The notes under the pieces: model-generated | What the model was told of the DNA's origin: nothing | Database searches by the model: none | What the model saw: only the letters and a program-made list of their open reading frames with translations | Shown here: one piece after another, positions 6,508 to 35,519 of the stretch | How the letters are laid out: every line of letters begins with the position of its first letter | How positions within the stretch are numbered: the stretch's first letter is position 1 | Source: Thermoanaerobaculia bacterium | Lineage (GTDB): Bacteria > Acidobacteriota > Thermoanaerobaculia > Gp7-AA8 | DNA: 64,000 nucleotides | Assembly (NCBI GenBank): GCA_036522835.1 | Contig: DATDFB010000057.1 | Location: 3,906-67,905, forward strand | Direction of reading: 5' to 3' | Program-made: the position numbers and the translations under genes

Positions 6508-6511
6508 GACG

Positions 6512-7153: not shown

Positions 7154-7448
7154 CGACAACTTCCTGGAGCGCCTCCGCGGCGACGCGCGGCAGCTTCGCT
7201 ACGAGCCCGGCGACTTCGCCTTCGCGCGCCTGCAGGCGCGCGTGCGCGAGCGCCTCACCCAGCCGACCGCGGCCCAGTTTCTGGCGTCGTGGTTCCGGCC
7301 GCTCTCCGCGTCGCTGGCGGCGCTGTCGCTGGTAGCGGCCCTCGGCACGGCCTACTATGTCGACACGCGCGACCAGGTGACGATGGACTCCATGGCATCG
7401 AACTCCGTCGAGATCACGGTGGACGGGGCCACGTACAGTGTCGACTAG
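7146..7448 (+). CDS. putative anti-sigma factor (small, single TM)
   Basis: Overlaps the sigma-factor stop. 100 aa with one hydrophobic segment (LSASLAALSLVAALGTAYYV). Position is typical for the cognate anti-sigma. Confidence 0.45.
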   Translation: MSDDNFLERLRGDARQLRYEPGDFAFARLQARVRERLTQPTAAQFLASWFRPLSASLAALSLVAALGTAYYVDTRDQVTMDSMASNSVEITVDGATYSVD

Positions 7449-13505: not shown

Positions 13506-14542
13506 GGTTTGACGCTGCCGAGCGCCTCCGCCGCTTTGACTCGGACGTACATGTTCTCGTCGTCCTGCGCAGCCTTGGCGCGCAGCGTGTCGAGCGTGGC
13601 CGGGTCGGCCTGGCCGCCCTTCTTGAGCAGATTCGAGAGGGCCTCTACGGCTTTGAGGCGCACGGCGGGATTGGGATCGGTCTTCAGCGCCTGGATCAGC
13701 GCCTCCCGCGAGTCGCTCGTCGCGCCGCCCGCGGGCAGATTCGTCAGCGTCTCCACGGCCTTGATGCGCACGCCCTCGTGCGTGTCGTTGCGGAGGACGT
13801 TGGCCAGGGCGCGGGTGATCTCCGGATCGGCGTTGCCGGGCTGCGAGTACGTCGAGCGCACCCAGTCGATGGCCCGCGACTGCGACGGGGCCATGCGGTC
13901 CTCGTTCTCAAGGACGTAGCGCATCAGCCGCACCATGGTCTTGTCGGTTGGACGGCCGGTGACGGTCATGTGCGAGGTGATGTCGAACGAGACGCCGATC
14001 TGGTCGTCCGGCGCATTGAGCTGCGTGAAGCTCACGTTTTGGATGTCGGGACGCCCTTCGATCACCGGGCTGATGGAGTTGGCCGGCAGCACGCGCGATT
14101 CGGCGATGGAGAACGCGGCCGGCTGGTACGGCGTTGCGCTCGTGATCTTCGCCTCGGTCGTCGTCTGCGTTGCCGGCTTGTCGAAAACCGTCGTCGACGA
14201 CGTCGTCGTGCGATGTCCCGCCAAGTACGACCCGCCCGCGATCACGACGACCGCGGCGGCCTGCGCAAGCCAGCGGAACGCTGGCCGGCGACGAAACGGG
14301 ACGACGTCCGCCGATTCGACGGGAGGGTTCACGCGGTTGAGGAACTCCTGCTTCATGCGCGGCGGGACTTCGAGCTCGGGCAGTTGCTCGAGGAAGCTCC
14401 ACGTCTCGCGGTAGCCCGTCCACTCCTCGCCGCACGCCGCGCACTGCTCGATGTGCTGGTGCGTGGTCTCTCGCCGCACCGGGTCGAGCGACTCGGTCAA
14501 GAGCAGCGGCATCTGTTCGCGCATCAGAGTGCAGTCAGACAT
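13502..14542 (-). CDS. anti-sigma factor with N-terminal zf-HC2 zinc finger, one TM helix and C-terminal HEAT repeats
   Basis: HIEQCAACGEEW (zf-HC2). TM segment AVVVIAGGSYLAG. C-terminal repeats VRIKAVETLTNL / AVRLKAVEALSNL / VRVKAAEALGSV. Overlaps the upstream sigma gene. Confidence 0.7.
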   Translation of the reverse strand: MSDCTLMREQMPLLLTESLDPVRRETTHQHIEQCAACGEEWTGYRETWSFLEQLPELEVPPRMKQEFLNRVNPPVESADVVPFRRRPAFRWLAQAAAVVVIAGGSYLAGHRTTTSSTTVFDKPATQTTTEAKITSATPYQPAAFSIAESRVLPANSISPVIEGRPDIQNVSFTQLNAPDDQIGVSFDITSHMTVTGRPTDKTMVRLMRYVLENEDRMAPSQSRAIDWVRSTYSQPGNADPEITRALANVLRNDTHEGVRIKAVETLTNLPAGGATSDSREALIQALKTDPNPAVRLKAVEALSNLLKKGGQADPATLDTLRAKAAQDDENMYVRVKAAEALGSVKP

Positions 14543-15135
14543 CGTTCACCTCCGCTCGCCTCGCCGGTGAGCGCTTTCTTCAACACTTCCATGGCCCGGA
14601 ACACGCGCGTCTTCACCGCCCCCTCCGAGCATCCTGCGATCTGCGCGATCTCCGCGTACGACAGCCCCTGGTAGCGCGAGAGCAGGATGGCTTCGCGCTG
14701 GTCCGGAGTCAGGAACTGCAGCGCTTTCTGGATCCTCAGTTGGTTCTCGCGCTGCTCGAGCCGGTGATGGGGCGACTCGGACTGGCTGGCCGGCAGCGTC
14801 ACCAGAGCATCGTCCGAGTCCTTCGGCTTGTTGTCCCCTTTGCGCAGGTAGTCGCGGCACCAATTGGCCGCGATGGAAAAGAGCCAGGTGGAGAGCTTTG
14901 CCTCTCCATTGAACTGGTTGGCGTGCTTGAGCATCTTGACAAAGACTTCCTGGGTCGCGTCTTCCGCTGCCTCGCTGTTCCGGAGGAAGCGGTAGGTGAA
15001 GTTGTAAATCCGGCCTGAATAACGGTCGTAGATCTCCGAGGCGGGGGAGAAGTCGCCCGCCTGAACGATGCGCATGAGCTCCTGATCGCTCAGGGACTTC
15101 ATCTCCCTCGGTTCTCTCTGCTTCGACGCGGACAT
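14524..15135 (-). CDS. ECF RNA polymerase sigma factor
   Basis: Regions 2 and 4 present (ATQEVFVKMLKHANQF...STWLFSIAANWCRDYLRK; LTPDQREAILLSRYQGLSYAEIAQIAGCSEGAVKTRVFRAMEVLKK). The ORF extends to 15195, but that would overlap the upstream ligase gene, so I call an internal Met. Confidence 0.8.
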   Translation of the reverse strand: MSASKQREPREMKSLSDQELMRIVQAGDFSPASEIYDRYSGRIYNFTYRFLRNSEAAEDATQEVFVKMLKHANQFNGEAKLSTWLFSIAANWCRDYLRKGDNKPKDSDDALVTLPASQSESPHHRLEQRENQLRIQKALQFLTPDQREAILLSRYQGLSYAEIAQIAGCSEGAVKTRVFRAMEVLKKALTGEASGGERCLTAL

Positions 15136-15145
15136 GTCGGAAAGG

Positions 15146-16309
15146 TTACGGGCCGGCTGTTTGGAGTTGCGCAACAGCCGCCGGAGCGCCTTCATTGCGC
15201 TCGACCGAGGCGATCACCAGGGCGAAGAGGTCGAGCATGGCCAGAAAGACCTCGGTGTCGCCGAAGTTGAACTCGAACATCCCCGCGACGACGAGCCCGA
15301 CCGTAATGGCCACGCCGAGCTCGGCATATTTCGAGCCCCAGCCTCGGGCGCATTCCCTCAGAAAGAGCGCGATCAACACGACGTACGCGGCGAGCCCGAG
15401 AATGCCGCGCTCGGCCCAGAGCTGCACGAGGTTGTTGTGCAGGTGCGGGATGCGGAAGCGCGGCGCGTCGGGCTTGCGGTAGAGCGGATAGACCTCTTTC
15501 ATGTTGCCCGGGCCGACGCCGAGGACCGGAACGTCTTTGATGATCTCCACGCCGCCTTCGAACATGCGGATCCGGTCGAAGTTCGACGACTGCTTCGTGT
15601 CGAAGGCCGACAGGACCCGGGCGAAGTACGGCAGGGGGAGGAAAGTGATGACGAGGATGCCGGCCGGCACGGCCCAGGCAAGAAGGCGCGGCCGCTTCAG
15701 CGTGGCGAGCACGACGACGGCGACGAGCCAGCCGAGCCAGGCGCTGCGGGTGAAGGTCATGAGCAGCGTGAGCGTGGTCAGGATCGTGCCGCCCAGGAGC
15801 CAGAGGTTGCGGCGGTCGTGAATCCAGAGGACGAGGAAGATCAGCGCCACCGGCAGCATCAGCCCCGAATAGGTCATCACGTGCGCGGCCGGGCCGGTGA
15901 TGCGGTGCTCGAGATCGCGCTGGTGCAGTGCGAAATACTGCACAAAGCCGTAAAGCGAGGAGAAGACGCCGAAGGCGAGGAAGGTCTTCAGGGCCATCTC
16001 TTTGGTCCTCGGCACGTTCCTGAACAGGATGAGCGCGGCGGGAAAGAGCAGGCACTTCAACCACAGCGCGCTCTCGCCGAAGGCATGCTTCGACGCGCCG
16101 TTGGCGATGGAGGAGACCGAGGAGTCGAGCGCGTAGACGAAGAGCGGGAAGTAGAGGACGTGGAAGGAGGGTTTGATCTCGCCTTTCCAGATCAGCCAGG
16201 CGAGCGTGCCGATCATCAGAACGACGCCGAGCTCCGAGGAGGCGATCCAGCCGGCGCAGAAGATGTGGGCGAGGTAGAAGAAAGTCGCGAGTGCAACGCC
16301 GCGGGACAT
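15146..16309 (-). CDS. O-antigen ligase family (WaaL / O-antigen polymerase-like) membrane protein
   Basis: 387 aa with roughly 10-12 TM helices and a large periplasmic loop. O-antigen ligase-type motif region FTRSAWLGWLVAVVVLATL...HLHNNLVQLWAERGILGL. Confidence 0.75.
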   Translation of the reverse strand: MSRGVALATFFYLAHIFCAGWIASSELGVVLMIGTLAWLIWKGEIKPSFHVLYFPLFVYALDSSVSSIANGASKHAFGESALWLKCLLFPAALILFRNVPRTKEMALKTFLAFGVFSSLYGFVQYFALHQRDLEHRITGPAAHVMTYSGLMLPVALIFLVLWIHDRRNLWLLGGTILTTLTLLMTFTRSAWLGWLVAVVVLATLKRPRLLAWAVPAGILVITFLPLPYFARVLSAFDTKQSSNFDRIRMFEGGVEIIKDVPVLGVGPGNMKEVYPLYRKPDAPRFRIPHLHNNLVQLWAERGILGLAAYVVLIALFLRECARGWGSKYAELGVAITVGLVVAGMFEFNFGDTEVFLAMLDLFALVIASVERNEGAPAAVAQLQTAGP

Positions 16310-20620: not shown

Positions 20621-22939
20621 CTAGTTCAACCGCGCGGCCAGGTCCCTGAACTCCGTCTCCTCCCGCAACACATCCAGCCGCGGATCGACCTCGATGAACA
20701 CCAGCCACGCGCTCCGGTCCTCGTACGCCTCCCGCAGCTTCGCCAGCGCGGCCGCCTTCTCGCCCAACCCCGCATAAATGATCGCGATGTCGTACGGCGA
20801 GATGTAGCGCGTCTTGGCCTGCTCCGAGAGCATCGTCAGGATCAGCTCCGCCTCCCGCCGCTGACCGGCAATGGCGCGGGTGTGGCCGAGCATGGCCAGC
20901 AAGATCGGCACGCGGTCCGTCTCCAGCGCGCGCTGGAACGACTGCAACGCCTCCTCGTAGCGGCCCTGCTGCCCCAAGGCCATGCCGCGCCAGGCCTGGG
21001 CGGGGATGAACTTCTCGTCGAGCTCCAGCGCCTTCTCGAAGCGGCCGATGGCGGACTCGTAATCGCGCGCGAAATAGAACGGCCAGCCGCTGTGCACGAA
21101 GATGATGCGCGACAGCGGATCGAGCTCCACCGCCTTCTTCACCTGCTCGAGCGACGCGTCGAAGCGGCCGCGCGCGCAGAGGAGCATGGCGTAGCCGTCG
21201 TGCGCCGTCGCGTAGTTCGGATTCAGCTTGATGGCGCTCGTGTACGCCGCCTCCGCCCCCTCCCAATCCCACTCGTACCACCACTTCACCGCCGCCAGCG
21301 ACGCCCACGCCTCCGCGAGCGACCCGTCGATCTTCAGCGCCTGCTCGGCCGCCGCCTTCGCCTTCGGCATGGCCTCGCGCGGCGGCAGCGGGATGTTCGT
21401 CGCCAGCGTCATGAGGCTGTCGGCCAGCCCGGCGTACGCGCCGGCGAACGACGGATCGCTCTCGATGGCCTCCTGGAAGTGGACGATCCCCTTCTTCAGA
21501 CTCTCCTCGGTGCGCTTGTTCCACTGATAGCGCCCCTTGAGATAGAGCTGGTACGCCTCCGTGTTTTTCGTCGACGTCTTGCGCAGCCGCTTCTTCTCCG
21601 CGCCGGTGAGGCGGATGCGCAGCGCTTCGGCGATCTCCTGCGACATCTCTTCCTGCAGCGTGACGAGGTCGGCGATCTGGCGGTTGTACTGCTCGCCCCA
21701 GAGGTGCGCGCCATCGAGGGAGTCGACCAGCTCGACGTTGATGACGATGCGGTCGCCGACGTGCTTCACCCGCCCGCTCAACACCGCGCGCACGCGCAGG
21801 TCGCGGCCGACGGCGCGCGGGTCGACTTCGCGGCCTTTGTAGCGGAACACGGTGCTGCGCGCCATCACCTTGAGCTTCGGCAGTTGCGAGAGCTTGTTGA
21901 TGACACCCTCGGTCACGCCGTCGGAGAGATAGTCGGTCTCGGCGTCGGCGCCGCCGTTCTGGAACGGCAGGACGGCGATGGAGTCGATGGCTTTCGACTT
22001 CCGCGTGCGCGGGCGCGGCAGCAGGTCGATGCGCGTCGTGGAGCTCGACGAGATCGCGCGCAGCGTCAGCGCCAGGTCGCGCGCGGACTGAAACCGCTGC
22101 AGCGGGTTCTTTTCCACGCACCCTTCGATGACGCGCTGGAACTCCGGCGGCACGGCCTCGGCCAGCTCGTCACGCGAGACGTCTTCCTTGAGAATGGCCG
22201 CGATCGTGGCCGCGCCGGAGCCGCGCTGGAACGGCTTCTTCGACGTGACCATCTCGTAGAGGATGCAGCCGAGGGAAAAGATGTCCGCAGTGCCGTCGAC
22301 CGCCTCGCCCTTGAGCTGTTCCGGCGCCATGTAGGCGAGCGTCCCCACGATCGTCCCCGGATCGGTGCGGAACTTCCGCGTCGGCAGGTTGCCGGTGTCC
22401 TCGCCGGTGAGGTACGGGTCGGTCTGGGCGAGGCCGAAGTCGAGGATCTTGATGCGCCCTTCGCGCGTGAGGAAGACGTTCTCCGGCTTGAGATCGCGGT
22501 GGACCACGGCGCGCGAGTGCGCCGCCGCCAGGCCTTCGGCGATCTCCGCGCCGATGTCGACCGCGGCGCGCCATTCGATGATCGCGTTCGCGAGCCGGGC
22601 GCGCAGCGTCTCCCCTTCGAGCAGCTCCGTGACGACGAAGAAGGTGCCGTCCTGGTCGCCGTAGTCGAAGATGGAGAGGACGTTCGGGTGCGACAGCGAC
22701 GCGATGGCGCGCGCCTCGCGCTCGAAGCGCGCCAGGGCATCGGCGTCGCGCGCGGAATCGGGCAGCAGCACCTTGATGGCCACGTCGCGGCCGAGGCGGG
22801 GGTCGCGGCCGCGGTAGACCGCACCCATCCCTCCCTCGCCGAGGAGCGTAAGAACTTCGTACGGACCGACGCGGGAGCCTGAAGCCAGCATGCCGAGCGG
22901 TCCAATGCTAATCTTTTCCGCAATGGTCCTCATTAACAA
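20621..22939 (-). CDS. Ser/Thr protein kinase with C-terminal TPR domain
   Basis: Kinase subdomains: GEGGMGAVYRG, VAIKVL, HRDLKPENVFL, DFGLA, APE. C-terminal ~350 aa of TPR repeats. Met17 (22891) is an alternative start. Confidence 0.85.
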   Translation of the reverse strand: MLMRTIAEKISIGPLGMLASGSRVGPYEVLTLLGEGGMGAVYRGRDPRLGRDVAIKVLLPDSARDADALARFEREARAIASLSHPNVLSIFDYGDQDGTFFVVTELLEGETLRARLANAIIEWRAAVDIGAEIAEGLAAAHSRAVVHRDLKPENVFLTREGRIKILDFGLAQTDPYLTGEDTGNLPTRKFRTDPGTIVGTLAYMAPEQLKGEAVDGTADIFSLGCILYEMVTSKKPFQRGSGAATIAAILKEDVSRDELAEAVPPEFQRVIEGCVEKNPLQRFQSARDLALTLRAISSSSTTRIDLLPRPRTRKSKAIDSIAVLPFQNGGADAETDYLSDGVTEGVINKLSQLPKLKVMARSTVFRYKGREVDPRAVGRDLRVRAVLSGRVKHVGDRIVINVELVDSLDGAHLWGEQYNRQIADLVTLQEEMSQEIAEALRIRLTGAEKKRLRKTSTKNTEAYQLYLKGRYQWNKRTEESLKKGIVHFQEAIESDPSFAGAYAGLADSLMTLATNIPLPPREAMPKAKAAAEQALKIDGSLAEAWASLAAVKWWYEWDWEGAEAAYTSAIKLNPNYATAHDGYAMLLCARGRFDASLEQVKKAVELDPLSRIIFVHSGWPFYFARDYESAIGRFEKALELDEKFIPAQAWRGMALGQQGRYEEALQSFQRALETDRVPILLAMLGHTRAIAGQRREAELILTMLSEQAKTRYISPYDIAIIYAGLGEKAAALAKLREAYEDRSAWLVFIEVDPRLDVLREETEFRDLAARLN

Positions 22940-23822
22940 AGCGATTAACGAAGTGACGGTGAAGCTCGTCTATTACGGACCCGGTCTGTGCGGGAAGACG
23001 ACCAACCTGGAGAAGATCTACGGAAACCCGAAGCTCGAGAACAAAGGGAAGATGATCTCGATGTCGACGGAGACGGACCGAACGCTCTTTTTCGACTTCA
23101 TGCCGATGGAGCTCGGCACGATCGGCGGCCAGAAAGTGCGCGTGCAGCTCTACACCGTGCCGGGGCAGGTGTTCTACGACGCCACGCGCAAGCTCGTGCT
23201 GCGCGGCGCGGACGGCGTGGTCTTCGTGGCCGACTCGCAGTCGTCGATGCGGGAGTCGAACCTCCAATCGCTCGAGAACCTGATCACGAACCTGCGCCTC
23301 AACCGCATCGATCCGCAGAAAATCGCGCTCGTCTTTCAGTACAACAAGCGCGACCTGCCGAACGTCGACAGCGTCGAGGACATGAACGGATACCTGCATC
23401 CCGACGGCATTCCGGTCGTCGAGGCGGCGGCGATCAACGGCACCGGAGTGACGGCCACGCTGCGCACGGCGGTGGCGCGGATCCTCGACAACCTGAAGAA
23501 GGGCGTCGACACGACGCTGCACGAGGAGCCGGAGCTGGCGCCGCCGGACTTGAGCGTGGGGCTGTCGGGAAAACCTGTCGATCCGTTCGCACCAGTCGAC
23601 GAAGAGCCATTCGAGGCCGATGTCGCCGTGGCGGTGGCCGAGGAGGAGACGGAGGACCCGTTCGCGGCGCCGGCGGCGGAGATCCACGACACGGGCGCCG
23701 AGCGCGCCGAGCTCGAGGCCATGCTGGCGGGGGCGCGCGAGGTCGTGGCCTCGCTCGAAGCCGCGCTCGAGAAAGCGCGCCACCAGGAACGGCGGCTCGC
23801 GGATAAACTCGGCGCGCTTTGA
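22923..23822 (+). CDS. mglA: MglA-like Ras-superfamily small GTPase with ~115-aa acidic/coiled-coil C-terminal extension
   Basis: MVLINKAINEVTVKLVYYGPGLCGKTTNLEKIY...MSTETDRTLFFDFMP...YTVPGQVFYDATRKLVLRGADGVVFVADSQ...QYNKRDLP matches Myxococcus MglA nearly motif for motif. Extra C-terminal tail EEPELAPPDL...EAALEKARHQERRLADKLGAL. Confidence 0.85.
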   Translation: MVLINKAINEVTVKLVYYGPGLCGKTTNLEKIYGNPKLENKGKMISMSTETDRTLFFDFMPMELGTIGGQKVRVQLYTVPGQVFYDATRKLVLRGADGVVFVADSQSSMRESNLQSLENLITNLRLNRIDPQKIALVFQYNKRDLPNVDSVEDMNGYLHPDGIPVVEAAAINGTGVTATLRTAVARILDNLKKGVDTTLHEEPELAPPDLSVGLSGKPVDPFAPVDEEPFEADVAVAVAEEETEDPFAAPAAEIHDTGAERAELEAMLAGAREVVASLEAALEKARHQERRLADKLGAL

Positions 23823-24520
23823 CCTGGTTCCACGAATGGTTCGGCGAGGAGTACCTCGCGCTCTACTCGCATCGTGACGACGACGAGGCGAGGCAGCAGG
23901 TCGTCTTCTTCAAAGAGCATTGCGGCGCCGTGCGCGGGCCGCTCCTCGACCTCGCCTGCGGCAAGGGGCGGCACATCGCCGAGCTGCGCGCCGCCGGCTA
24001 TGGCGCGGTCGGCTGCGACCTCTCCTTCACGCTGCTGCGCACCGGCCGCGCCGAGTACGGGCCGCTCCCGGTGGCGCGCGCGGACATGCGCGCGCTGCCG
24101 TTCTGCACGGCGGGCTTCGCCGGCCTGGTGAGCTTCTTCACCTCGTTCGGGTACTTCTCGGTTGAGGAGGAAAACGTGGCCGTCGTACGCGAGATGGCGC
24201 GCGTGCTGGAAAAGGGGGCGGTGTTCCTCTTCGACTACCTGAATCTGCACCGGGAGCTGGAGAAACTGGTGCAGCGCGAGACGCGCGGCGACGTCACGAT
24301 CGAGCGCTGGTTCGACTCGCAGGACCGCTCGTTCAACAAACGGATAACAATCGGACAAAAGCGCTACCTGGAGCGCGTTCGCGGATACGATCTCGACGAG
24401 ATCTCGATGATGTTCACGACGGCGGGCCTGACGATTCGCGCCGCGTTCGGCGATTTCCTCGGTGCGCCGTTCGAAATGAGCTCGCCGCGGCTGATCGTGC
24501 TGGGGACGAAGAATCGATGA
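23819..24520 (+). CDS. class I SAM-dependent methyltransferase
   Basis: SAM motif I LLDLACGKGRH. Post-I acidic residue. TTG start overlapping the mglA stop. Confidence 0.7.
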   Translation: MTWFHEWFGEEYLALYSHRDDDEARQQVVFFKEHCGAVRGPLLDLACGKGRHIAELRAAGYGAVGCDLSFTLLRTGRAEYGPLPVARADMRALPFCTAGFAGLVSFFTSFGYFSVEEENVAVVREMARVLEKGAVFLFDYLNLHRELEKLVQRETRGDVTIERWFDSQDRSFNKRITIGQKRYLERVRGYDLDEISMMFTTAGLTIRAAFGDFLGAPFEMSSPRLIVLGTKNR

Positions 24521-26004
24521 CGATTCAGTTCCCGCTGGACTGTTATCCCGGGTTCAACCGATTCGTCCTCGACTGGCTCGGCGGCGATGCGAGGTTTCTT
24601 TGTCGCGGTGCCCACTCGGTAGGGGCGCACGGCGTGCGCCCGCGGCAACTTGCCGACGCGCTGATCGAATCCAACAAACGCTGGGGCCTCTTCGTCGACG
24701 ACGACGTCCGCCGCTGGCAACGCGGTGAAGGCATGACCGTCATCGCCGGCCAGCAAACCGGCTTCGCCGGCGGCCCTCTCTACACGCTCGTCAAGATCGC
24801 CACGCTCGTGCGGATGAAGCGCGACAACGAAGCGCGCGGCATCCCCACCACCGTCTTTTTCTGGCTGGCAACCGAGGATCACGACTTCGCCGAGGTGGCA
24901 AGCGTTGCCTTTCCAGCGGGCGACGCGCGCGCGCAGCGCGACCTCGTCTACCTCCGCGCCGCGCGCGCCGTGGAGACGCGCGACGTCGTCGGCCCGCAGC
25001 CCGTCCCGCCGGTGCTGATCGACGAGCTCCTTGCGTTTTTCAACATGCCGCGGCCGCCGTGGCTGCGCGAAGGGATCTCGTTCCGCGACTCCTTCGCGGA
25101 GCTGATCGCCGGCGTCTTTCCGCGCGACGTCGTGCTCGTCGATGCGCTGCTGCCGGAGCTGCGGCGCGCGGGAGCGCCGCTCTTCGCATCGATCGTGTCG
25201 ACGTGGGACGCGATTCAGAGCGCGCTCGCCACGCGCGCCGCCGAGCTGACCGCCGCCGGCTACACGCCGCAAGTCGCGCCGCGCGAGAACGGGCAGTACA
25301 CGCTGCTCTACGAGATCGGCGAGCGCGGCAACCGCGAAATCACCGACAAAGCGGCCGTGCCGGAATGGACATCCACGTCGGCGCTCACGCGGCCTTTGCT
25401 GCAGGACTCCGTGCTGCAACCTGACGTCTTCGTCGGCGGGCCGGCCGAGGTCGCGTACTACGCGCAGATCGCGCCGCTGCACGAAATGCTCGGCATTGCC
25501 ATGCCGCGCGTTGCGCTGCGCGCGCACGCGCTCATCGCGCCGAAGCGCATCGCCCGCGCGATCGAGCGCTACGACATCAAACCGGAGGACATCTTCACGA
25601 GCGCGGATGAACTGCTGGCCACGCGCGAGCCGGAAGGCGTCGCCACGATTCGCGAAGCGGCGGAAAAGGGCCGCAAAGAGCTGACGGACGTTTTCACGCA
25701 GATCGGCGACGTCGCATTTCCCGCCGATCACGCCATTGCCAGAAGAGTCAGCCGCTCCATCGGCCACATCGAGTACCACTTCGACAAGCTCGCCGAGCGG
25801 GCCACGCGCTCGCTCGTGCGCAAGGACCGCGAGCGCTACGCCGCGGTGCGCGAGCTCGTGGCCGCGCTCTTCCCCGACCGCCAGGTGCAGGACCGCGTCG
25901 CCGGCTGGTTTGCCTACTGGAGCGAATCCGGCAACCATCTCGTCGAGCGCTTGATCGAGGAGATCGAGCCGGACAGCGACGTCTGCAGGATCGTGACGCT
26001 ATGA
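24517..26004 (+). CDS. bshC: bacillithiol biosynthesis cysteine-adding enzyme BshC
   Basis: Hallmark VIAGQQTGFAGGPLYTLVKIATLV (BshC GQQxG...GPLY motif). ~495 aa. ATGA overlap with the upstream gene. Carries an in-frame family-C repeat near the N-terminus. Confidence 0.78.
   Translation: MTIQFPLDCYPGFNRFVLDWLGGDARFLCRGAHSVGAHGVRPRQLADALIESNKRWGLFVDDDVRRWQRGEGMTVIAGQQTGFAGGPLYTLVKIATLVRMKRDNEARGIPTTVFFWLATEDHDFAEVASVAFPAGDARAQRDLVYLRAARAVETRDVVGPQPVPPVLIDELLAFFNMPRPPWLREGISFRDSFAELIAGVFPRDVVLVDALLPELRRAGAPLFASIVSTWDAIQSALATRAAELTAAGYTPQVAPRENGQYTLLYEIGERGNREITDKAAVPEWTSTSALTRPLLQDSVLQPDVFVGGPAEVAYYAQIAPLHEMLGIAMPRVALRAHALIAPKRIARAIERYDIKPEDIFTSADELLATREPEGVATIREAAEKGRKELTDVFTQIGDVAFPADHAIARRVSRSIGHIEYHFDKLAERATRSLVRKDRERYAAVRELVAALFPDRQVQDRVAGWFAYWSESGNHLVERLIEEIEPDSDVCRIVTL
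24615..24645. repeat. Palindromic repeat family C (GGTAGGGGCGCACGGCGTGCGCCC), single-arm copy inside bshC
   Basis: ctcggtaggggcgcacggcgtgcgcccgcgg, encoding RGAHSVGAHGVRPR in frame. Confidence 0.75.
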
Positions 26005-26720
26005 AACCCGTCGACGCCATCTTCTTCGACGCCCATCCCGACGACATCGAGCTCTCCTGCGGCGGCACGATCGTCGACTTCGTCAGCCGCGGCCTCAGGG
26101 TCGGCATCATTGACCTCACCAGCGGCGAGATGGGGACGCGCGGCACGCCCGAGACGCGCCGCCGCGAGGCCTCCGCCTCCGCCGAGATCCTCGGCGCGTC
26201 CTTCCGCGAGCAGCTCGACTTCGGCGACGGCGCCCTCCGCACCGGCCGCGAGGAAGAGCTGCAGATCATCGGCGTCATCCGCAAGTACCGCCCGAAAATC
26301 ATCTTCGCGCCGTGGCCCGACGAGCGCCATCCCGACCACGCCCGTGCCGGGCGCCTCATCACCGAGGCGTCGTTCTACGCGGGGCTGCGCGCGCTGGAGA
26401 CGGCGCTGCCCGCGCACCGCCCGCAGGTCACGATCTACTACCTGCAGAACTACCTTCCGCCGATCAGCTTCGTCGTCGACGTGTCGAAGGCGTGGCCGAC
26501 GAAGATGCGCGCCATCGGCGCCTTCGAGTCGCAGTTCTACAAACCGAATTCGACCGAGCCGGAGACGTTCATCGCCAAGAAGTCGTTTCTCGACATGATC
26601 GAGGCGCGCGGCCGCCACTTCGGCGCGCTCATCGGCGCGGAGTACGGCGAGGCCTACGTGACGAAGCAGCCGCCGAAGATCGAGGACGTGATCGCGGCGT
26701 ACAGCGGGAGGGAACCGTGA
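26001..26720 (+). CDS. bshB: LmbE/PIG-L family deacetylase, N-acetylglucosaminyl-malate deacetylase BshB
   Basis: DAIFFDAHPDDIELSCGGTIV and HPDHARAG motifs of the LmbE family. ATGA overlap with bshC. Confidence 0.83.
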   Translation: MKPVDAIFFDAHPDDIELSCGGTIVDFVSRGLRVGIIDLTSGEMGTRGTPETRRREASASAEILGASFREQLDFGDGALRTGREEELQIIGVIRKYRPKIIFAPWPDERHPDHARAGRLITEASFYAGLRALETALPAHRPQVTIYYLQNYLPPISFVVDVSKAWPTKMRAIGAFESQFYKPNSTEPETFIAKKSFLDMIEARGRHFGALIGAEYGEAYVTKQPPKIEDVIAAYSGREP

Positions 26721-27841
26721 GAATCGGCATCACCTGCTACCCCACCTTCGGCGGCTCCGGCGTGGTAGCCACGGAGCTCGGCATCGCTCTGGCCAAGATG
26801 GGCGACGACGTCCACTTCATCAGCTACGCGCCGCCGTCGCGGCTCAACATCCTCCACGAGCGCGTGCGCTTCCACGAAGTCACGGTCACGCCGTATCCGC
26901 TCTTCGATCCGTTCCCGCCGTACACGCTGGCGCTGGCGACGAAGATGGCGGAGATCGCCGAGTACGAGCGCCTCGACGTGCTGCACGTGCACTACGCGAT
27001 CCCGCACGCCATCAGCGCCCACCTCGCCCGCGAGATCCTCGGCGACAAGATGCGCTTCGTCACCACCCTGCACGGCACCGACATCACCCTCGTCGGGCGC
27101 GACGCGTCGTATCTGCCGATCACGAAGTTCGGCATCGAAGTCTCCGACGGCGTCACGGCCGTGTCGCATTGGCTGCGCGACGAGACGGAGAAGAACTTCG
27201 GCACGAAGAAGGAGATCGCCGTCATCCCGAACTTCGTCGATCCGCTGCGCTTCCAGCGCCACGAGAGCGCGTTCTGCCACCTCTTCGGCGACGCCGGCGA
27301 CCGCCTCCTCTGCCACGTCTCGAACTTCCGTCCCGTGAAGCGGATCATGGACGTGCTGGCCGTCTTCGAGCGCGTGCTGCGCGTGATCCCGAGCCGCCTG
27401 GTGATGATCGGCGACGGCCCCGACCGTTCCAAGGCCGAGGCGTTCTGCCGTCAACATCATTTGAAGGACCGCGTCTTTTTCCTCGGCAATGTTCCGAATC
27501 TCGAAGAGATCGTCGGCGCCAGCGACGTGTTCCTCCTGCCCAGCGAGCACGAGTCGTTCGGCATGGCCGCGCTGGAGGCGATGGCCTCGGAAGTCCCGGT
27601 CATCGCCACGCGCGCGGGCGGACTGCCCGAGGTCGTGGTCGACGGCGAGACCGGATACCTCCTGCCGGTCGGCGACGTCGACGCCATGGCCGAGCGCGCC
27701 ATCGCCATCCTCACCGACAAGGTCCTGCAGCGCCGCCTCGGGCGCGCCGGACGCGCGCTGGCGGAGGAGCAGTTCAACGTGAACCGCGTCGTGCCGATGT
27801 ACCGCGAGTTCTATGAGAAGTTCCTGGTTCTTCGTTCTTAG
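26717..27841 (+). CDS. bshA: N-acetyl-alpha-D-glucosaminyl L-malate synthase BshA (GT4)
   Basis: GTG start overlapping the bshB stop. VRIGITCYPTFGGSGVVATELGIALAKMGDDVHFISYAPPSRL matches the BshA N-terminus. C-terminal GT4 EHESFGMAALEAMA motif. Confidence 0.85.
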   Translation: MRIGITCYPTFGGSGVVATELGIALAKMGDDVHFISYAPPSRLNILHERVRFHEVTVTPYPLFDPFPPYTLALATKMAEIAEYERLDVLHVHYAIPHAISAHLAREILGDKMRFVTTLHGTDITLVGRDASYLPITKFGIEVSDGVTAVSHWLRDETEKNFGTKKEIAVIPNFVDPLRFQRHESAFCHLFGDAGDRLLCHVSNFRPVKRIMDVLAVFERVLRVIPSRLVMIGDGPDRSKAEAFCRQHHLKDRVFFLGNVPNLEEIVGASDVFLLPSEHESFGMAALEAMASEVPVIATRAGGLPEVVVDGETGYLLPVGDVDAMAERAIAILTDKVLQRRLGRAGRALAEEQFNVNRVVPMYREFYEKFLVLRS

Positions 27842-29892
27842 TTCTTGGTTGGTCGGGCGTAGATCTCCGCGTAGTTCTCGTACGAATTCAGCACCTTGCG
27901 CACGTAGTCCTTCGTCTCGTCGAAGCTGACGGCGGTGAGGAAGAAGTCGTCGCCGGGGCCGGCGGCGAGGCGCGACCAGAGCGCGGCCTGCTTCGGGCCG
28001 GCGTTGTAGGCGGCGGCGATCTTGTAGCGGTCGCCGCCGAGCTCTTTCGACAGCGTGGCCACGTACTTCGCGCCCAGGCGGATGACGACGCGCGGGTCGT
28101 AGAGATCGTCTTCGTCGACGTCGACGAGGCCGATGTCGCGGCCGATCTGCCGCGCCGTGGTGATGATGAGCTGCAGGAGACCTCGCGCCGCCGCCTCCGA
28201 CTTCGCGCGCGGATCGAAGCGCGACTCCTCGCGCATGATGGCGAAAAGCAGCGTCGGATCGGCGCTGTAGCTCTTCGCGTCGGCCTCGATGAAGCTCGCG
28301 AAGTAGCGCGGATAGAGCAGCTCGCGGACGACGCGCGGGAGGAGCTGCGGGACGAAGTCGTCGGGCACGCCGTTCATCACCGTCTCGATGGCGCGGATCG
28401 ACTCGTGCGAGGCATTGCCGAGGTTCAGGGCGAGCGATTGCGTGAGGCCGCTCTGCATGGGGTGCAGCGGCCAGATCTTCGGGATGTCGTCGGCCGCCTC
28501 GTCGAAGAGGCCCATGGCCATGAGCTGTTCGGCGCGCGAGGCATCGGGCGGGAGAGGGACGTGCGGGAAGGGGAGCGGCTTCAGGTCGAGGACGGCCTTG
28601 TACGGCGGCTTCTGTTGGTAGCTCGCGGCAATTTGCTTCAGGTCCGGCTGGAAATGCAGCCGCTGCCGCGCGAAGTAGGCGAAGTGCGTCGGCACGGTGG
28701 CGTGGATGACCCGGAGATAGGCCTCGCGCGACGCCTGCGGATTCGACGACTCCAGCGCGCGGCCGCGCCAGTAGTCGATCTCGTACGGATCGAATTTGTC
28801 GAGCAGGTTCCGCGGGATGGCGTTCAGCGTGACGACGCACGCGCCGGCGTTCCCCGCGCCGAGCATGCCGACGGCGTAGGCGAGCGAGGCGTCGACGAGC
28901 GCGCGGTCCTTCGGGAAGAGCTTGCGCATCGCCGCCAGATCCGCCGCCGCATCGGCAAAGCGCCGCTGCTTAAGGCGCGTGCGCAAACGCTGCGTCAACG
29001 CGGCGGCGGTCGAGGCCGTGCGCGCCGGCACGGCGATGGCCTGCGTCATGAGCTGCTCCGCGCCGGCGTCATTCCCCTGCAGTTGCGCGGCGCGCGCGGC
29101 ATGCCAGAGGAAGGTAATCTTCATTGCCGCGCTCTTCGTCTGCTGCGCGCCGCGGAGGTACGTCGCCTGCGCCTGCGCAAACTTTTCGTCGCCGTAGTAG
29201 GCGCGGCCGATCGAAAAGGTGATGTCGTCGCTCGGCGGCACGGAACCGAGCAGCGCCACGGCGCGGTCGAAGTGGCGGTGGTTGAGCATGGCCGTGCCGA
29301 GGAGAATTCTCTGTGGCGGCGTGAGCCGCGCGCGCAGCTCCGCCGTGTCGAGAGCGCGCGCGACGTGCTCCGCGGCGTCGTCCATCGTGCCGCCGGCGAG
29401 GATGGCCAGACACGCCGCGCCGTTCCGCGACGCTTCGGCGAGGCGCGCCTGAATGTCGCGTGACGGCGGAAGCCGCTGCGCGAACGCCGACAGCCGCTGC
29501 GGGTCCTTCATGAGGTATTCGACTTCGTCCTCGATGGCTTGCTGGCGATAGAACGCGTGCGGGTACTCGAAGATCAGCGTTTGCCGGTCGCGGCTCGCCG
29601 CCTCGCCGTCCTCGATCTCGGCCTTGTGGTAGAGCGCAAGGTCGCGGAAGGGATTCCCCGGCGCGAGGAACGGCGCCAGCTCTTTCGCCGCGGCAGCGCG
29701 CTCATTGCGGTCGACGAGAAGCCGGGCACGGAGGTACGAGGGCGCCGGCGCAGCCGGCAGCGCCGTCCTCTCGACACGAAAGACCCGCCGGCGCGCCACG
29801 CGCTGCCGCGCGGCGACGATCCCGAGAATGACGACGATCAGGATGAGGGCAGCAAGGGCGGAAAGGAGAAGGACGAGTCGTTTCTTCGTCAA
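27838..29892 (-). CDS. lytic murein transglycosylase (Slt family) with N-terminal membrane anchor
   Basis: C-terminal SLT domain LLFAIMREESRFDPRAKSEAAARGLLQLI...AAYNAGP. N-terminal TM LVLLLSALAALILIVVILGIVAA. Long superhelical region. Confidence 0.8.
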   Translation of the reverse strand: MTKKRLVLLLSALAALILIVVILGIVAARQRVARRRVFRVERTALPAAPAPSYLRARLLVDRNERAAAAKELAPFLAPGNPFRDLALYHKAEIEDGEAASRDRQTLIFEYPHAFYRQQAIEDEVEYLMKDPQRLSAFAQRLPPSRDIQARLAEASRNGAACLAILAGGTMDDAAEHVARALDTAELRARLTPPQRILLGTAMLNHRHFDRAVALLGSVPPSDDITFSIGRAYYGDEKFAQAQATYLRGAQQTKSAAMKITFLWHAARAAQLQGNDAGAEQLMTQAIAVPARTASTAAALTQRLRTRLKQRRFADAAADLAAMRKLFPKDRALVDASLAYAVGMLGAGNAGACVVTLNAIPRNLLDKFDPYEIDYWRGRALESSNPQASREAYLRVIHATVPTHFAYFARQRLHFQPDLKQIAASYQQKPPYKAVLDLKPLPFPHVPLPPDASRAEQLMAMGLFDEAADDIPKIWPLHPMQSGLTQSLALNLGNASHESIRAIETVMNGVPDDFVPQLLPRVVRELLYPRYFASFIEADAKSYSADPTLLFAIMREESRFDPRAKSEAAARGLLQLIITTARQIGRDIGLVDVDEDDLYDPRVVIRLGAKYVATLSKELGGDRYKIAAAYNAGPKQAALWSRLAAGPGDDFFLTAVSFDETKDYVRKVLNSYENYAEIYARPTKN

Positions 29893-30338
29893 ACGTCATC
29901 TCGGGCCAGCGTTCCCGACAGAACTGCGTGCGGGGCGCGCCTGAGAATCTCGTTCTTAGCAATCGCGTAGCCAAGGATCGCGTCGACCAGCACCCGCCGC
30001 CCGTCCGCGGAGAGCAGCACCAGAATCTTCCGCTTGATCTCGCGGATCTCCACGATCTCCTCCCAGCGCAGCCACCGCCCCGGCTTCCCGAGCCACGACA
30101 GCACGCGGTTCTCGTACATCACGCCGTCGTCGCTGAAATAGATGTGGTCGCCGTACTGCACCGCCGCCGCGGCGAGCGTGCCGAGGAAGAGGAGCACCAG
30201 CACCGTCAGCGTGAACGGCTCGATCTCCTTCGCGCCGTGCGAGAGGTAGTCGAACACCAGCGCCGCCGAGGCGAACGTCGCCGCGCAGGAGATGAGCCGC
30301 GCGATGGGCGTTCGGTCGAAGCGGAGGATACGGTTCAT
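29889..30338 (-). CDS. hypothetical small membrane protein
   Basis: 149 aa with two TM helices. Stop overlaps the slt start. Confidence 0.45.
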   Translation of the reverse strand: MNRILRFDRTPIARLISCAATFASAALVFDYLSHGAKEIEPFTLTVLVLLFLGTLAAAAVQYGDHIYFSDDGVMYENRVLSWLGKPGRWLRWEEIVEIREIKRKILVLLSADGRRVLVDAILGYAIAKNEILRRAPHAVLSGTLARDDV

Positions 30339-32224: not shown

Positions 32225-33607
32225 ATGCGCAAGACCTTTCTTTTGCTCGCGTTAACTGCGGCTCTGCCCGCCTTTGCCCAGAACACCGACATCGAGTCCC
32301 TCTCCGGCCTGCAATTCAATTTCGGCAACCCCGGCGCCCGCTCCCTCGGCATGGGCGGCGCGTTCCTCGGCCTCGCCGACGACGCCTCGGCCGCCGAGGC
32401 GAACCCGGCCGGGCTCACCATCCTGCGCAAGCCCGAGGTCTCCATCGAGATCCGCAACTACGTCGAGCAGCAGACCTTCACCACCACCGGCACCTATCCG
32501 GACATCAGCCGCACCGACTTCAACCATTACAGCCAGCGCGTCCCCATCACCTTCGCCAGCGCGGTTTACCCGTACAAGAACGCCACCTTCGGCCTCTACT
32601 ACCACGAGGCGCTGCGCAATCAAGGCTCGGGGCAGGTCATCCCCATCCGCAACGAATTCAGCGGCGCGGTGACGGCCGACGTCCCGAACTTCTACCTCGC
32701 CAAGGGCGGGACCGCTCCGGTCACGCGCGATCAGTGCATCGCCATCAACGTCGCGGCGAAGGACGACTTCGCCTGCCTGCAGTACACCATCCTTCCGTTC
32801 CTCAGCGCGCTCGACGTCACCGAGCGCACGTTCGGCCTGGCCGGCGCGTACAAGATCGGCAAGTTCTCCTTCGGCGGCACCGTGCGCTACCAGCGCTTCA
32901 ACGAGACCGCGTTCACCTTCCGCGTCACGCCGGACTTCGATTTCTCGTCGATCTCCGTGCAGGCCACGAGTGACATCCGTGAGAACAGCGACAAGGCGAA
33001 GGACGTCAGCGACGTCACCTTCACCGCGGGCGTGAAGTGGACGCCGAACGACCGCTTCAGCGCCGGCGCGGTCTACAAGCAGGGGGCGCGCTACAAGGCC
33101 CCCACCTTCGCCGCGAACGAGGATACAAACTTCGACTTCGTCAAAGTCTCCGACACGACCTTCCACATCCCCGACATCTTCGGCGCCGGCGTTTCCGTCC
33201 GGCCCATCCCGGTGCTGACGGTCAACGTCGACGCCGTGCGGGTGAAGTACTCGAACCTCGTCGACAACTTCGTCTCCATCAACGAGTCGGTGCGCGAGAT
33301 CGACCAAGCCTACAAGGCTCCCGACGTCACGGAGCTCCACGCCGGCGCGGAGTACTTCTTCGCGACGAAGATTCCGCTGGCGCTGCGCGTCGGCTGGTGG
33401 CACGACCCGGCGCACTCGATCGAATACCGCGGACCGCTGAGCACGCCCGACCGCGTCGCCGCGGCGATCCTCTACCCGCGCGGCGAGTCGCAGAACCACC
33501 GCTCCATCGGCGCGGGATTAGCGTGGCCGCGATTCCAGGTTGATGCCGCGTATGACACCTCACCGCACTACAAGGTCGCCTCGGTTTCGATGGTTGCTCG
33601 TTTCTAG
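32225..33607 (+). CDS. outer-membrane transport protein of the OMPP1/FadL/TodX family
   Basis: Signal peptide MRKTFLLLALTAALPAFA. N-terminal SLGMGGAFLGLADDASAAEANPAGLT motif typical of FadL/TodX. Beta-barrel composition. C-terminal aromatic residue. Confidence 0.68.
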   Translation: MRKTFLLLALTAALPAFAQNTDIESLSGLQFNFGNPGARSLGMGGAFLGLADDASAAEANPAGLTILRKPEVSIEIRNYVEQQTFTTTGTYPDISRTDFNHYSQRVPITFASAVYPYKNATFGLYYHEALRNQGSGQVIPIRNEFSGAVTADVPNFYLAKGGTAPVTRDQCIAINVAAKDDFACLQYTILPFLSALDVTERTFGLAGAYKIGKFSFGGTVRYQRFNETAFTFRVTPDFDFSSISVQATSDIRENSDKAKDVSDVTFTAGVKWTPNDRFSAGAVYKQGARYKAPTFAANEDTNFDFVKVSDTTFHIPDIFGAGVSVRPIPVLTVNVDAVRVKYSNLVDNFVSINESVREIDQAYKAPDVTELHAGAEYFFATKIPLALRVGWWHDPAHSIEYRGPLSTPDRVAAAILYPRGESQNHRSIGAGLAWPRFQVDAAYDTSPHYKVASVSMVARF

Positions 33608-35519
33608 CGCGCTGCTCGTCTGCGCGCTCGCGGCGAGCGCGCAGGTGCAGGAATCGATCACCGTCAACCTCATCGAAGTGCCGGTGACGGTCGTCGACTC
33701 GAGCGGCAACCCGGTCCGCGGGCTCACCGCCGCGAACTTCAAGCTCTACGACCAGGGGAAAGAGGTCGCCGTCAGCTCGGTCGACACAATCGACTTCGCC
33801 TCGAAGGAGTCGATGAGCGCGGTCTCGCCGCTGAATCCGGCGGCGCGGCGCAAGTTCCTCGTCCTCTTCGATCTTTCCTTCTCGAAGCCGTCGTCGCTGG
33901 CGCGCGCGCAGGAGGCGGCGCGGGCGTTCGTGACCAAGTCGGTGCAGCCGCGCGACCTCGTCGGCGTCGGCACGGTCGACAAGCGCGGCTTCCGCCTCGT
34001 TGCCTCGTTCACCACGGACCGCAAGCTCGTCGCCGACGCGATCGCCAATCCGGCGCAGATGAAGACGGACGATCCGCTGCACCTCGGCCGCAGCGGCATC
34101 GCCTTCGAGCTCTCCGACCATTCGAGCGAGACCGGGAAAGGGAGAGCGGCGATGGGCGACGAGAACGTCGCCGCGCTCATGGCCGACTCCATGCGCCAGA
34201 ACCGCGAGACCGCGCGCGCCGAGGCCGAGAAGGAGATGGACTTCCTCGGCGACCTGGCCAAAACGCTGCGCAGCATCCCGGGGAAGAAGCAGGTCGTCTT
34301 CCTCTCCGAGGGCTTCGACCCGCGCTTCATTTCCGGAAGCGACGCGCGCGAGGACCTCACCTACCAGGCCAGCGTCTTCGATACGAGCGACGACAAACGC
34401 TTCGGCTCGAACAGCGCCTCCACGACACTGCGGCGGATGGCCGACGCCTTCCGCGGCTCCGACGTCGTTCTGCACGCGCTCGACATCCAGGGTCTGCGCG
34501 TCGACAACAGCATCGAGGGCGGCTTCGTCAACAGCAACGACTCGCTGCGCCTCCTGGCCCAGCCGACCGGCGGCATGGTCTTCAAGAACGCGAACAAGAT
34601 CGAGACCGACTTCGAGCGCCTCATGAAGACGGAGGAAGTCGTCTACGTGCTGTCGTTTCAGGCGCCGGCGTCGAAGCCCGGCAAGTTCCACGACCTGAAG
34701 GTGAAGCTCGTCAACGTCCCGGGCGGCGCGAAGGCCTTCGCGCGCGCCGGCTACTACGAGAGCGGCAGCGAGACGCAGCAGGAGCGCACGATGACGAATG
34801 CCGAGATCGTGATGAACGACGTGGAGCAGAAGGACTTCCGCACCGCGTCGCTCGCCGCGGCGTTCCCGACGATGACGGATGCGGCGCAGGTGCCGGTCAT
34901 CGTCGAGATCAGCGGCACCGACCTCGAGAAACAGAACGCCGTCGACTTCTACGTCTACGCATTCGATGAAGAGGGGACGGTGCGCGACCGCCTCTACCAG
35001 CGCGTGACGCTCGACCTAGGCAAGGTCGGCGCGAAGCTGCGCGCGAACGGCCTGAAGTACTGGGCCACGCTGTCGCTGCCGCCGGGCAAGTACGCGGTGA
35101 AGACGCTCGTCCTGGCCGGAGCGAAGAAAGGCTTCGCGCGCGCCGACGTCGTCGTCCCCGCGTCCAACCAGCTCACCGCCGCGCCGATCTTCGTCGACGA
35201 CAGCTCGGCCAATTGGGTGCTGGTGAAGGGAACGTCGCACGCGCAGGCGGCGGCGTATCCGTTCGACCTCAGCGGCGAGCATTTCATCCCCGCCGCCACG
35301 GCGCGCACGAAGCGCTTCGCCGTCTTCGTGCCGAACGCGAAGCCGGAGGACGTCACCTTCGAGACGACGCCGAAGGTGAAGTTCCTCGGCGCGGCAAAGA
35401 GCGGGGGGGCGACGGCGCTGGTGATGGAGCTCGACCAGGCGGTAAAGGACGTGGAGCTGACGATCCGCAAGAAGGGCGTGGCCACGCCGGAGAAGATTCC
35501 GCTGCACATCGTGCAGTAA
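33552..35519 (+). CDS. secreted VWA-domain protein (VWFA-related Acidobacterial domain, TIGR03436-like)
   Basis: Signal peptide, then ITVNLIEVPVTVVDSSGNPVRGLTAANFKLYDQGKEVAV and RKFLVLFDLSFS (VWA MIDAS region). Start chosen at ATG 33552; the ORF track starts at TTG 33540. Confidence 0.72.
   Translation: MTPHRTTRSPRFRWLLVSSALLVCALAASAQVQESITVNLIEVPVTVVDSSGNPVRGLTAANFKLYDQGKEVAVSSVDTIDFASKESMSAVSPLNPAARRKFLVLFDLSFSKPSSLARAQEAARAFVTKSVQPRDLVGVGTVDKRGFRLVASFTTDRKLVADAIANPAQMKTDDPLHLGRSGIAFELSDHSSETGKGRAAMGDENVAALMADSMRQNRETARAEAEKEMDFLGDLAKTLRSIPGKKQVVFLSEGFDPRFISGSDAREDLTYQASVFDTSDDKRFGSNSASTTLRRMADAFRGSDVVLHALDIQGLRVDNSIEGGFVNSNDSLRLLAQPTGGMVFKNANKIETDFERLMKTEEVVYVLSFQAPASKPGKFHDLKVKLVNVPGGAKAFARAGYYESGSETQQERTMTNAEIVMNDVEQKDFRTASLAAAFPTMTDAAQVPVIVEISGTDLEKQNAVDFYVYAFDEEGTVRDRLYQRVTLDLGKVGAKLRANGLKYWATLSLPPGKYAVKTLVLAGAKKGFARADVVVPASNQLTAAPIFVDDSSANWVLVKGTSHAQAAAYPFDLSGEHFIPAATARTKRFAVFVPNAKPEDVTFETTPKVKFLGAAKSGGATALVMELDQAVKDVELTIRKKGVATPEKIPLHIVQ

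Follow-up and report, generated by a model that had tools for sequence, protein, structure and literature searches.

We analyzed a 64,000-nt stretch of contig DATDFB010000057.1 from a Thermoanaerobaculia bacterium (the whole stretch is called the window; GC content approximately 67%), with attention to a gene for an MglA-type GTPase that carries a long C-terminal tail and is referred to here as MglA-L. The gene, mglA, heads a plus-strand run of five genes, being followed by a methyltransferase gene, bshC, bshB and bshA, and every junction in the run is a 4-nt overlap (TTGA, ATGA, ATGA and GTGA, in that order). A gene for a Ser/Thr kinase (STK) with tetratricopeptide repeats (TPR) is divergent from mglA (Table 1). 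A scan for terminator-like sites on the plus strand from 22500 to 28200 found none; mglA, the methyltransferase gene and bshCBA share a strand, with no intergenic space between them. At the end of the run, the bshA stop codon (TAG, 27839-27841) overlaps the stop codon (27838-27840, minus strand) of a convergent gene for an SLT lytic transglycosylase, and there is therefore no space for a terminator between these convergent genes. A preliminary description of the locus, made from the letters of the DNA, had reported an MglA-type GTPase with no adjacent MglB gene, a divergent Ser/Thr kinase-TPR gene, start/stop overlaps throughout the run and a complete bsh pathway. All of these features were recovered here, the overlaps at all four junctions, bshB1 and bshA by their NCBIfam profiles and bshC by its Pfam domains. 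The description had also, correctly, placed the DNA among the Acidobacteria.

Table 1. Positions of the genes, protein segments and promoter-like elements at the mglA locus (coordinates of the window).
Feature	Coordinates	Strand	Basis
STK-TPR kinase gene	20621..22891	-	Pkinase E = 1.2e-51 and several TPR families
-10-like hexamer TAGCAT for kinase gene	22905..22910	-	13 nt before ATG 22891
Extended -10-like element TGCTAATCT for mglA	22906..22914	+	8 nt before ATG 22923
mglA, 299 aa	22923..23822	+	MglA alignment
MglA Group-1 GTPase domain, residues 1-195	22923..23507	+	E = 7e-67 to M. xanthus MglA
Acidic proline-rich disordered linker, residues 196-256, three (D/E)PF motifs	23508..23690	+	AlphaFold2 confidence (pLDDT), composition
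Amphipathic heptad helix, conserved, residues 257-299	23691..23819	+	AlphaFold2, conservation
-10-like hexamer TAAACT, candidate internal promoter for nmbA-bshCBA	23804..23809	+	9 nt before nmbA TTG
Probable nmbA, TTG start	23819..24520	+	closest PDB match 9RI2
bshC (cysteine-adding enzyme)	24517..26004	+	Pfam Rossmann-like_BshC 129.7 bits, CC_BshC 53.1 bits
bshB1 (N-acetylglucosamine (GlcNAc)-malate deacetylase)	26001..26720	+	TIGR04001
bshA (GlcNAc-malate synthase), GTG start	26717..27841	+	TIGR03999

The long-tailed MglA family

The GTPase domain of MglA-L matched Myxococcus xanthus MglA (PDB 5YMX) across residues 2-198, with 58% identity over 195 aa. Known MglA structures from M. xanthus and Thermus thermophilus (5YMX, 6H17, 3T12) aligned with the domain end to end (E = 7e-67 and 1.4e-52). 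Residues G19, G21, K25, T26, R53, T54, T78, Q82 and N141/K142/D144 are identical to those of M. xanthus MglA, as are the motifs GPGLCGKT (G1, residues 19-26), R53-T54, TVPGQ (G3) and NKRD (G4, residues 141-144), and the Pfam Ras and Arf profiles both matched above their thresholds. The intrinsic arginine finger R53-T54 was invariant in alignments of 19, 48 and 62 sequences; T78-Q82 of G3, which includes the catalytic glutamine, and Cys23 of the P-loop GPGLCGKTT were likewise invariant among homologues. The start codon at 22923 is backed by the N-terminal MglA alignment and the gene calls of homologues, together with the conserved -10 hexamer that lies 8 nt before it. In a public JGI annotation the GTPase appears as 'signal recognition particle receptor subunit beta', which looks like an annotation error.

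We compared MglA-L with the features of Group-1 MglA proteins given by Wuichet and Sogaard-Andersen in 2014 (PMC4316618), these being the G1 and G4 motifs, the arginine finger, TVPGQ, coupling to mglB, and length. MglA-L has the G1 and G4 motifs, the arginine finger and TVPGQ, and departs from the group in lacking mglB coupling and in exceeding the single-domain size of ~170-235 aa. In the part of the 2014 catalogue considered here, Group-1 proteins are 168-233 aa long with a single exception of 313 aa (PMC4316618). The catalogue has only two acidobacterial MglAs, of 194 and 196 aa. Our literature search found no paper linking MglA with Acidobacteriota. MglA-L is a genuine Group-1 MglA-type Ras-like switch and, with the P-loop (including Gly21), R53 and Q82 all intact, is predicted to cycle and hydrolyze GTP and to need a GTPase-activating protein (GAP).

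Whereas canonical MglA is a protein of ~195 aa with an mglB neighbor, MglA-L has an extension of 104 aa and bsh neighbors. The extension consists of a 61-aa acidic, proline-rich segment (18 D/E, 1 K/R, 9 P; net charge about -17) followed by a 43-aa heptad helix that is nearly neutral (8 D/E, 7 K/R). The preliminary description had given it as an acidic coiled coil of ~115 aa; a conserved extension is indeed present, but it is shorter than stated and only its linker is acidic. In an AlphaFold2 model of the tail, which the same description had suggested, residues 195-253 mostly had pLDDT values below 50, a helix was placed at 257-298, and the blocks covering 261-299 scored 92-98, consistent with a disordered linker and a confident terminal helix. 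The plan of the tail is shared by homologues, in which a conserved junction (LKNNVDTTL) leads into an acidic proline-rich linker of variable length and then into a terminal heptad helix of ~40 residues. Motifs of the form (D/E/S)PF recur across 75 homologues with a median of two per tail, and within the helix L278, E279 and A285 are invariant and L268, A281, L282, R286 and E289 nearly so. The GC content at third codon positions (GC3) is 0.85-0.86 in the tail (0.85 in the linker), a coding signature. That the heptad helix has small and charged invariant residues suggests that it serves as a coiled-coil docking or oligomerization module on a flexible acidic tether. We also searched 1.84 billion representative proteins with the tail alone and obtained 44 matches; each of the nine that were inspected was a C-terminal fragment or chimeric call from the MglA-L family, none placing the tail on another protein architecture, and no similarity to any protein outside the family was detected in this search.

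A species-level scan, with one genome per species, recovered 80 related loci (81 with the window), all from Thermoanaerobaculia or from unclassified Acidobacteriota metagenome-assembled genomes. The closest of them, DATELQ010000110, matches the window in gene order and has an MglA 91% identical to that of the window. The loci contain 74 complete homologues of the gene, all of them long (264-428 aa, save for one of 234 aa that looks frameshifted); the best 120 protein-database matches are 285-351 aa in length at a query coverage of at least 90%. Median identity to the window was 86% for the GTPase domain (74 relatives), 80% for ProS, 75% for BshA and 58% for BshC, the GTPase domain standing above every neighboring gene. 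The distant acidobacterial loci L076, L078, L079 and L080 encode MglA forms of 411-428 aa in which the terminal helix is retained.

Neither the 64-kb window nor the 10-kb flanks of the homologue in any of the 80 relatives yielded an mglB (Roadblock/LC7) gene (tblastn best E = 0.85; MglB profile hidden Markov model (HMM) best E = 4.9). The HMM was of Deinococcota type, built from 120 sequences gathered with T. thermophilus MglB as query, and was run with --max on 11,712 six-frame open reading frames (ORFs); Pfam scans found no Robl_LC7 domain among the called genes of the window. A conserved 149-aa gene downstream (29889-30338) was considered as a divergent MglB and rejected, having no Pfam match, N-terminal segments that are hydrophobic by eye, and no match to the MglB HMM. 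Coupling of mglB, meaning its presence within four genes, was found for 390 of 449 MglA genes and is typical, not obligatory (PMC4316618). In other lineages the loss of mglB accompanies Ser or Ala at position 21 (PMC3983030), whereas Gly21 is invariant in the MglA-L family, so that a GAP encoded elsewhere is expected. Long-tailed, mglB-uncoupled MglA is a large acidobacterial family and an undescribed variant of the known Group-1 MglA.

Some features of this family have parallels among MglA-type proteins studied elsewhere. SofG of M. xanthus carries terminal extensions. Like MglA-L, both SofG and the MglA of Bdellovibrio bacteriovorus have no adjacent mglB (PMC4316618, PMC3983030). The Bdellovibrio MglA has a TPR-domain partner, Bd2492 (PMC3983030), and MglA-L has a kinase-TPR neighbor; the two differ at position 21, where the Bdellovibrio protein has Ser and is predicted to be GTP-locked (PMC3983030) whereas the Gly of the MglA-L family predicts a hydrolyzing GTPase.

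Homologues of the kinase in 27 loci align from the ATG at 22891, which is the likeliest start. The JGI call starts the gene at the equivalent of window position 22828 (735 aa) and so cuts the Gly-rich ATP-binding loop, which looks like an annotation error. A kinase of comparable position and type is M. xanthus MasK, a Ser/Thr/Tyr-type kinase whose gene adjoins the mgl operon and in which mutations suppress an mglA allele (PMC3546991); the likeness extends to position and kinase type, the window kinase being TPR-fused, divergent from mglA, and the upstream neighbor of mglA in no more than 27 of the 70 relatives whose upstream sequence was long enough to tell. The kinase-TPR protein is one candidate partner of MglA-L.

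A probable N-methyl-bacillithiol operon

The product of the second gene in the run had been described as a methyltransferase dependent on S-adenosylmethionine (SAM). It is a class I methyltransferase, with matches to Methyltransf_25 and Methyltransf_11, but that description missed its probable identity as NmbA, the bacillithiol N-methyltransferase known from Chlorobaculum tepidum. The closest PDB match is C. tepidum NmbA (9RI2; E = 4.6e-24, query residues 2-229 to chain residues 15-259), with 35% identity over 223 aa; the next methyltransferase matched at 5e-9. The substrate/SAM-site residues and motif I of the C. tepidum enzyme have been described (PMC12719100). Six of the seven site residues are kept (W16, W20, R70, Y134, F135 and K198) and the seventh, H31, is replaced by Ser with the adjacent H32 conserved; motif I (VLDIAxGxG) reads LLDLACGKG at residues 42-50, which retains the AxGxG core. 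The overlap of its gene with bshC adds to the case for this identity. As a probable NmbA, the methyltransferase is therefore a member of the thiol pathway and not an extra component.

The scores of the other enzymes were 510.9 for BshA (TIGR03999, cut-off 273.7) and 272.3 for BshB1 (TIGR04001, cut-off 182.5). BshC scored 236.1 against TIGR03998, slightly below the NCBIfam equivalog cut-off of 265.8, with both of its Pfam domains above their gathering scores. The genes nmbA-bshC-bshB-bshA probably encode the known N-methyl-bacillithiol pathway (PMC6282198), with N-methyl-bacillithiol as the predicted product. All four enzymes are also those of C. tepidum (NmbA being CT1040); the window differs in gathering them into one overlapping operon, in the substitution of H31 and in the lower BshC score.

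Earlier surveys bear on how widespread the methylated thiol is in the phylum. NmbA was predicted in about a third of Acidobacteria positive for bacillithiol (BSH) (PMC6282198), and a 2025 survey reported it as absent from most Acidobacteriota with the BSH pathway (PMC12719100). Unlike that last statement, an NmbA-like gene is present in 49 of the 53 bsh-linked Thermoanaerobaculia loci, a difference that may be explained by the search of RefSeq in the 2025 survey (PMC12719100). In the loci L018, L023, L034 and L041, nmbA is missing, bshC begins 2-8 nt after mglA, and a -10-like hexamer is absent; the thiol of these species would be bacillithiol itself and not its N-methyl form, with the bsh genes apparently expressed from the mglA promoter.

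Gene order and promoter-like elements among relatives

The next same-strand gene after mglA could be determined in 69 loci and was nmbA in 49 and bshC in 4 (53 in total), with neither in 16. Flanking synteny is equally conserved, with an aldolase gene upstream (56 loci) and the SLT gene, the 149-aa gene and proS downstream. Because the flanks are conserved as well, the adjacency of mglA and the bsh genes is weak evidence of a functional link. The 16 loci without bsh genes include a coherent sister group, two single loci in other contexts and four distant Acidobacteriota. The sister group (11 loci, 9 of them informative), whose members share a tail motif, keeps mglA together with the upstream LigB/RidA fusion and aldolase genes; downstream of mglA it has no bsh genes, and convergent genes for a cation diffusion facilitator (CDF) transporter, purE and a response regulator are found there; mnmA is also among the neighbors in this group. 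In the four distant Acidobacteriota the long mglA follows genes for an NtrY-like kinase and a sigma-54 regulator. The flanks of two of these loci were scanned, with an NtrY-like histidine kinase found upstream in both L076 and L080, a sigma-54 response regulator in L080, and uppS-cdsA-rseP downstream in L076. The distant long MglA may be linked to two-component signaling.

Alignment of upstream regions on the start codons brought out -10-like hexamers, for which the background of TAnnnT is 1.7% per 17-nt window. TAnnnT precedes mglA in 76 of 81 loci (TAAGCT in 44, TAATCT in 10, TAACAT in 10), mostly as TGnTAAGCT. Two layouts were seen, the hexamer lying either 7-12 nt before the ATG (about half of loci, with no Shine-Dalgarno sequence) or ~25-30 nt before it with GGAGG between. 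The shorter spacing would predict a leaderless or near-leaderless mRNA. The kinase gene has a hexamer of its own (TACAAT, TAGAAT or similar) in 30 of 32 kinase-bearing loci including the window, 6-16 nt before the start and mostly at 6-13 nt. In the window the two ATG codons are separated by 31 bp, and TAGCAT on the minus strand and TAATCT (22909-22914) on the plus strand overlap by 2 bp; the same divergent overlap occurs in L001 and L029. Binding of RNA polymerase at the kinase and mglA promoters may thus be mutually exclusive. The positions of the hexamers also support the two start codons, at 22923 for mglA and at 22891 for the kinase gene. A built-in sigma-70 scan of the window found no promoters, its two-hexamer criterion being one that misses -10-only elements. 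At the kinase gene, mglA and nmbA alike, the conserved -10-only elements mostly lie 6-14 nt from the start codon, a layout that lacks a Shine-Dalgarno sequence. The pattern of hexamers suggests that leaderless mRNAs are common and -10-only promoters dominant in Thermoanaerobaculia.

Similar elements occur at the junction of mglA and the thiol genes. The TAAACT of the window lies within the mglA codons GAT AAA CTC, of which GAT and AAA are each rare in the genome; the GAT-AAA pair is expected at ~3% under genome codon usage. Among relatives, TAGACT, TACACT, TACAGT or TAAACT ends 7-14 nt before nmbA in 26 of 50 loci, and comparable hexamers precede bshC in 0 of 47, bshB in 2 of 49 and bshA in 3 of 47. 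In 22 loci the junction after mglA is wide, with 100 nt or more before the next gene, and 18 of these loci have their own hexamer before nmbA. The window itself combines full compaction with a retained hexamer. When 22 spaced junctions (gaps of 53-343 nt) were folded, 12 gave a GC-rich hairpin with a z-score of -3 or lower, in many cases immediately downstream of the mglA stop, these scores being optimistic because they come from best-of-window selection. GC-rich hairpins follow mglA in L015, L020, L047, L051, L056 and L059, and GCTGAAGC forms the loop in some of them (e.g. L020, L047 and L056); the hairpins may be terminators or else belong to a repeated palindromic element family. In many relatives, then, the bsh genes appear to stand as a unit of their own, and in others they appear to rely on the mglA promoter.

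Elsewhere in the window, at 6040-7854 and 14524-15195, are two genes for extracytoplasmic function (ECF) sigma factors. One of them has a gene for an LTXXQ/Metal_resist periplasmic protein on either side, and a CDF transporter gene (2397-3308) lies several kb upstream. Taken together they resemble a cluster for envelope or metal stress with no relation to mglA. Two further ORFs (33540-35519 and 46916-50188; 659 and 1090 aa) are clearly coding, with GC3 of 0.91-0.92, and have no Pfam match.

Relationship between MglA-L and the thiol genes

We favor the reading, to which we would give a probability of about 0.55, that MglA-L and nmbA-bshCBA are two functionally separate units that adjoin each other through lineage-specific gene order and have been transcriptionally fused to varying degrees, with both compacted into one overlapping gene string in the window. 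Like MglA, MglA-L would be a switch for polarity or motility that responds to the bound nucleotide, its tethered terminal helix positioning the GTPase or recruiting partners. In the second unit, BshA would form GlcNAc-malate, BshB would deacetylate it, BshC would add cysteine, and NmbA would methylate the cysteine amine. The four genes would be translationally coupled through their 4-nt overlaps. Their transcription would probably start both at the mglA promoter, by read-through, and at the -10-like element in the last mglA codons. We infer that there is no direct functional link between the two units.

Several observations weigh against this reading. The adjacency of mglA and the bsh genes is kept to deep divergence, with BshC identity down to 39%. 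Compact junctions (<100 nt) occur in 32 loci, of which 24 have no -10-like hexamer; the bsh genes at such junctions seemingly have the mglA promoter as their only one, an arrangement that selection for co-expression, and not chance, could have produced, and these junctions point to genuine co-transcription in many of the genomes. TTG, the start codon of nmbA in the window, is a poor one for a leaderless mRNA and so favors read-through and translational coupling from mglA. Every promoter call made here is that of a sequence motif alone, and the hairpin scores, as stated, are generous. On the protein side, the AlphaFold2 model of the GTPase domain is poor (mean pLDDT 59.6) because the alignment of close homologues has almost no diversity, the analysis yielded no partner for the tail, and the nine tail-only matches inspected gave no functional clue from other architectures.

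The opposite reading is that of the preliminary description, which had proposed an uncharacterized regulatory module joining the GTPase to thiol synthesis and had named, as findings that would count against it, independent promoters for bshC and a lack of conserved adjacency. The long MglA and N-methyl-bacillithiol synthesis would then act together, for instance through S-thiolation of Cys23 or through control of thiol synthesis by the GTPase and the kinase. P-loop cysteines of Rho GTPases are redox-sensitive, and the invariance of Cys23 fits such a role, as do the deep same-strand adjacency, the many compact junctions lacking a hexamer, and the overlaps without a terminator in the window. However, Cys23 is present in M. 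xanthus MglA as well and hence is not peculiar to bsh-linked proteins, and MglA is equally conserved in loci with no bsh genes nearby. The adjacency persists in 53 of 69 relatives but is lost in the sister group and in the distant Acidobacteriota, where long MglA stands in other contexts, and the flanking synteny is just as conserved. As for promoters, the candidate hexamers before nmbA, in 18 of 22 wide junctions and in the window, come close to the independent promoters so named, and such elements and hairpins occur in many relatives, but 24 of 32 compact junctions have no hexamer. The equal conservation of the flanks, the sister group without bsh genes and the separate hexamers before nmbA leave little support for the proposal, and we regard a GTPase-thiol regulatory module as unlikely.

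Other explanations concern the tail. It could be a same-molecule regulator that replaces MglB or RomR by folding onto the allosteric pocket of the GTPase, giving a self-exchanging or self-inhibited protein with no need of an adjacent mglB. In M. xanthus MglA this pocket, formed by alpha5 and the beta2-beta3 loop, binds acidic helices of MglB and RomR (PMC6785124), and MglA-L conserves the pocket residues L64 and I67 and has R181 and R186 in alpha5 where M. xanthus has K181 and K185. A strongly acidic linker and the absence of mglB within 10 kb in 80 of 80 relatives, as against coupling of 390 of 449 MglA genes elsewhere, would agree with this idea. It is the linker that carries the charge, though, whereas the terminal helix is nearly neutral and has heptads that better fit a coiled coil; Gly21, which elsewhere correlates with the presence of MglB (PMC3983030), is invariant, and mglB may lie elsewhere in the genome. 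On balance self-regulation by the tail seems rather improbable. We hold as more doubtful still a combined view in which soil Acidobacteriota widely possess a new class of mglB-uncoupled polarity GTPase whose tail self-regulates through the alpha5/beta2-beta3 pocket and whose frequent transcriptional fusion to the bsh genes might reflect redox control of Cys23. The extension could in principle also be an artefact of annotation or sequence, for instance through a lost stop codon or the translation of intergenic DNA, with a normal MglA of 195 aa as the true product, an idea to which the low complexity and variable length of the linker lend some color. We give it hardly any credence, since the extension is present in 74 of 74 complete homologues from independent genomes, the helix has invariant residues, the tail has the GC3 of coding sequence, and no relative has a stop codon near residue 195.

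The compact nmbA-bshCBA operon indicates that Thermoanaerobaculia probably make N-methyl-bacillithiol, which refines the published surveys, and the -10-only, leaderless-type promoter pattern should be useful for annotating genomes of this class. MglA is the chief model of Ras-like polarity control in bacteria, and its mechanism is known almost wholly from the single-domain, mglB-coupled form. The long MglA described here is apparently the usual form of the protein throughout a class of abundant soil bacteria and never adjoins mglB; its acidic (D/E)PF linker and its terminal helix with invariant residues offer a testable case of the rewiring of a polarity switch.

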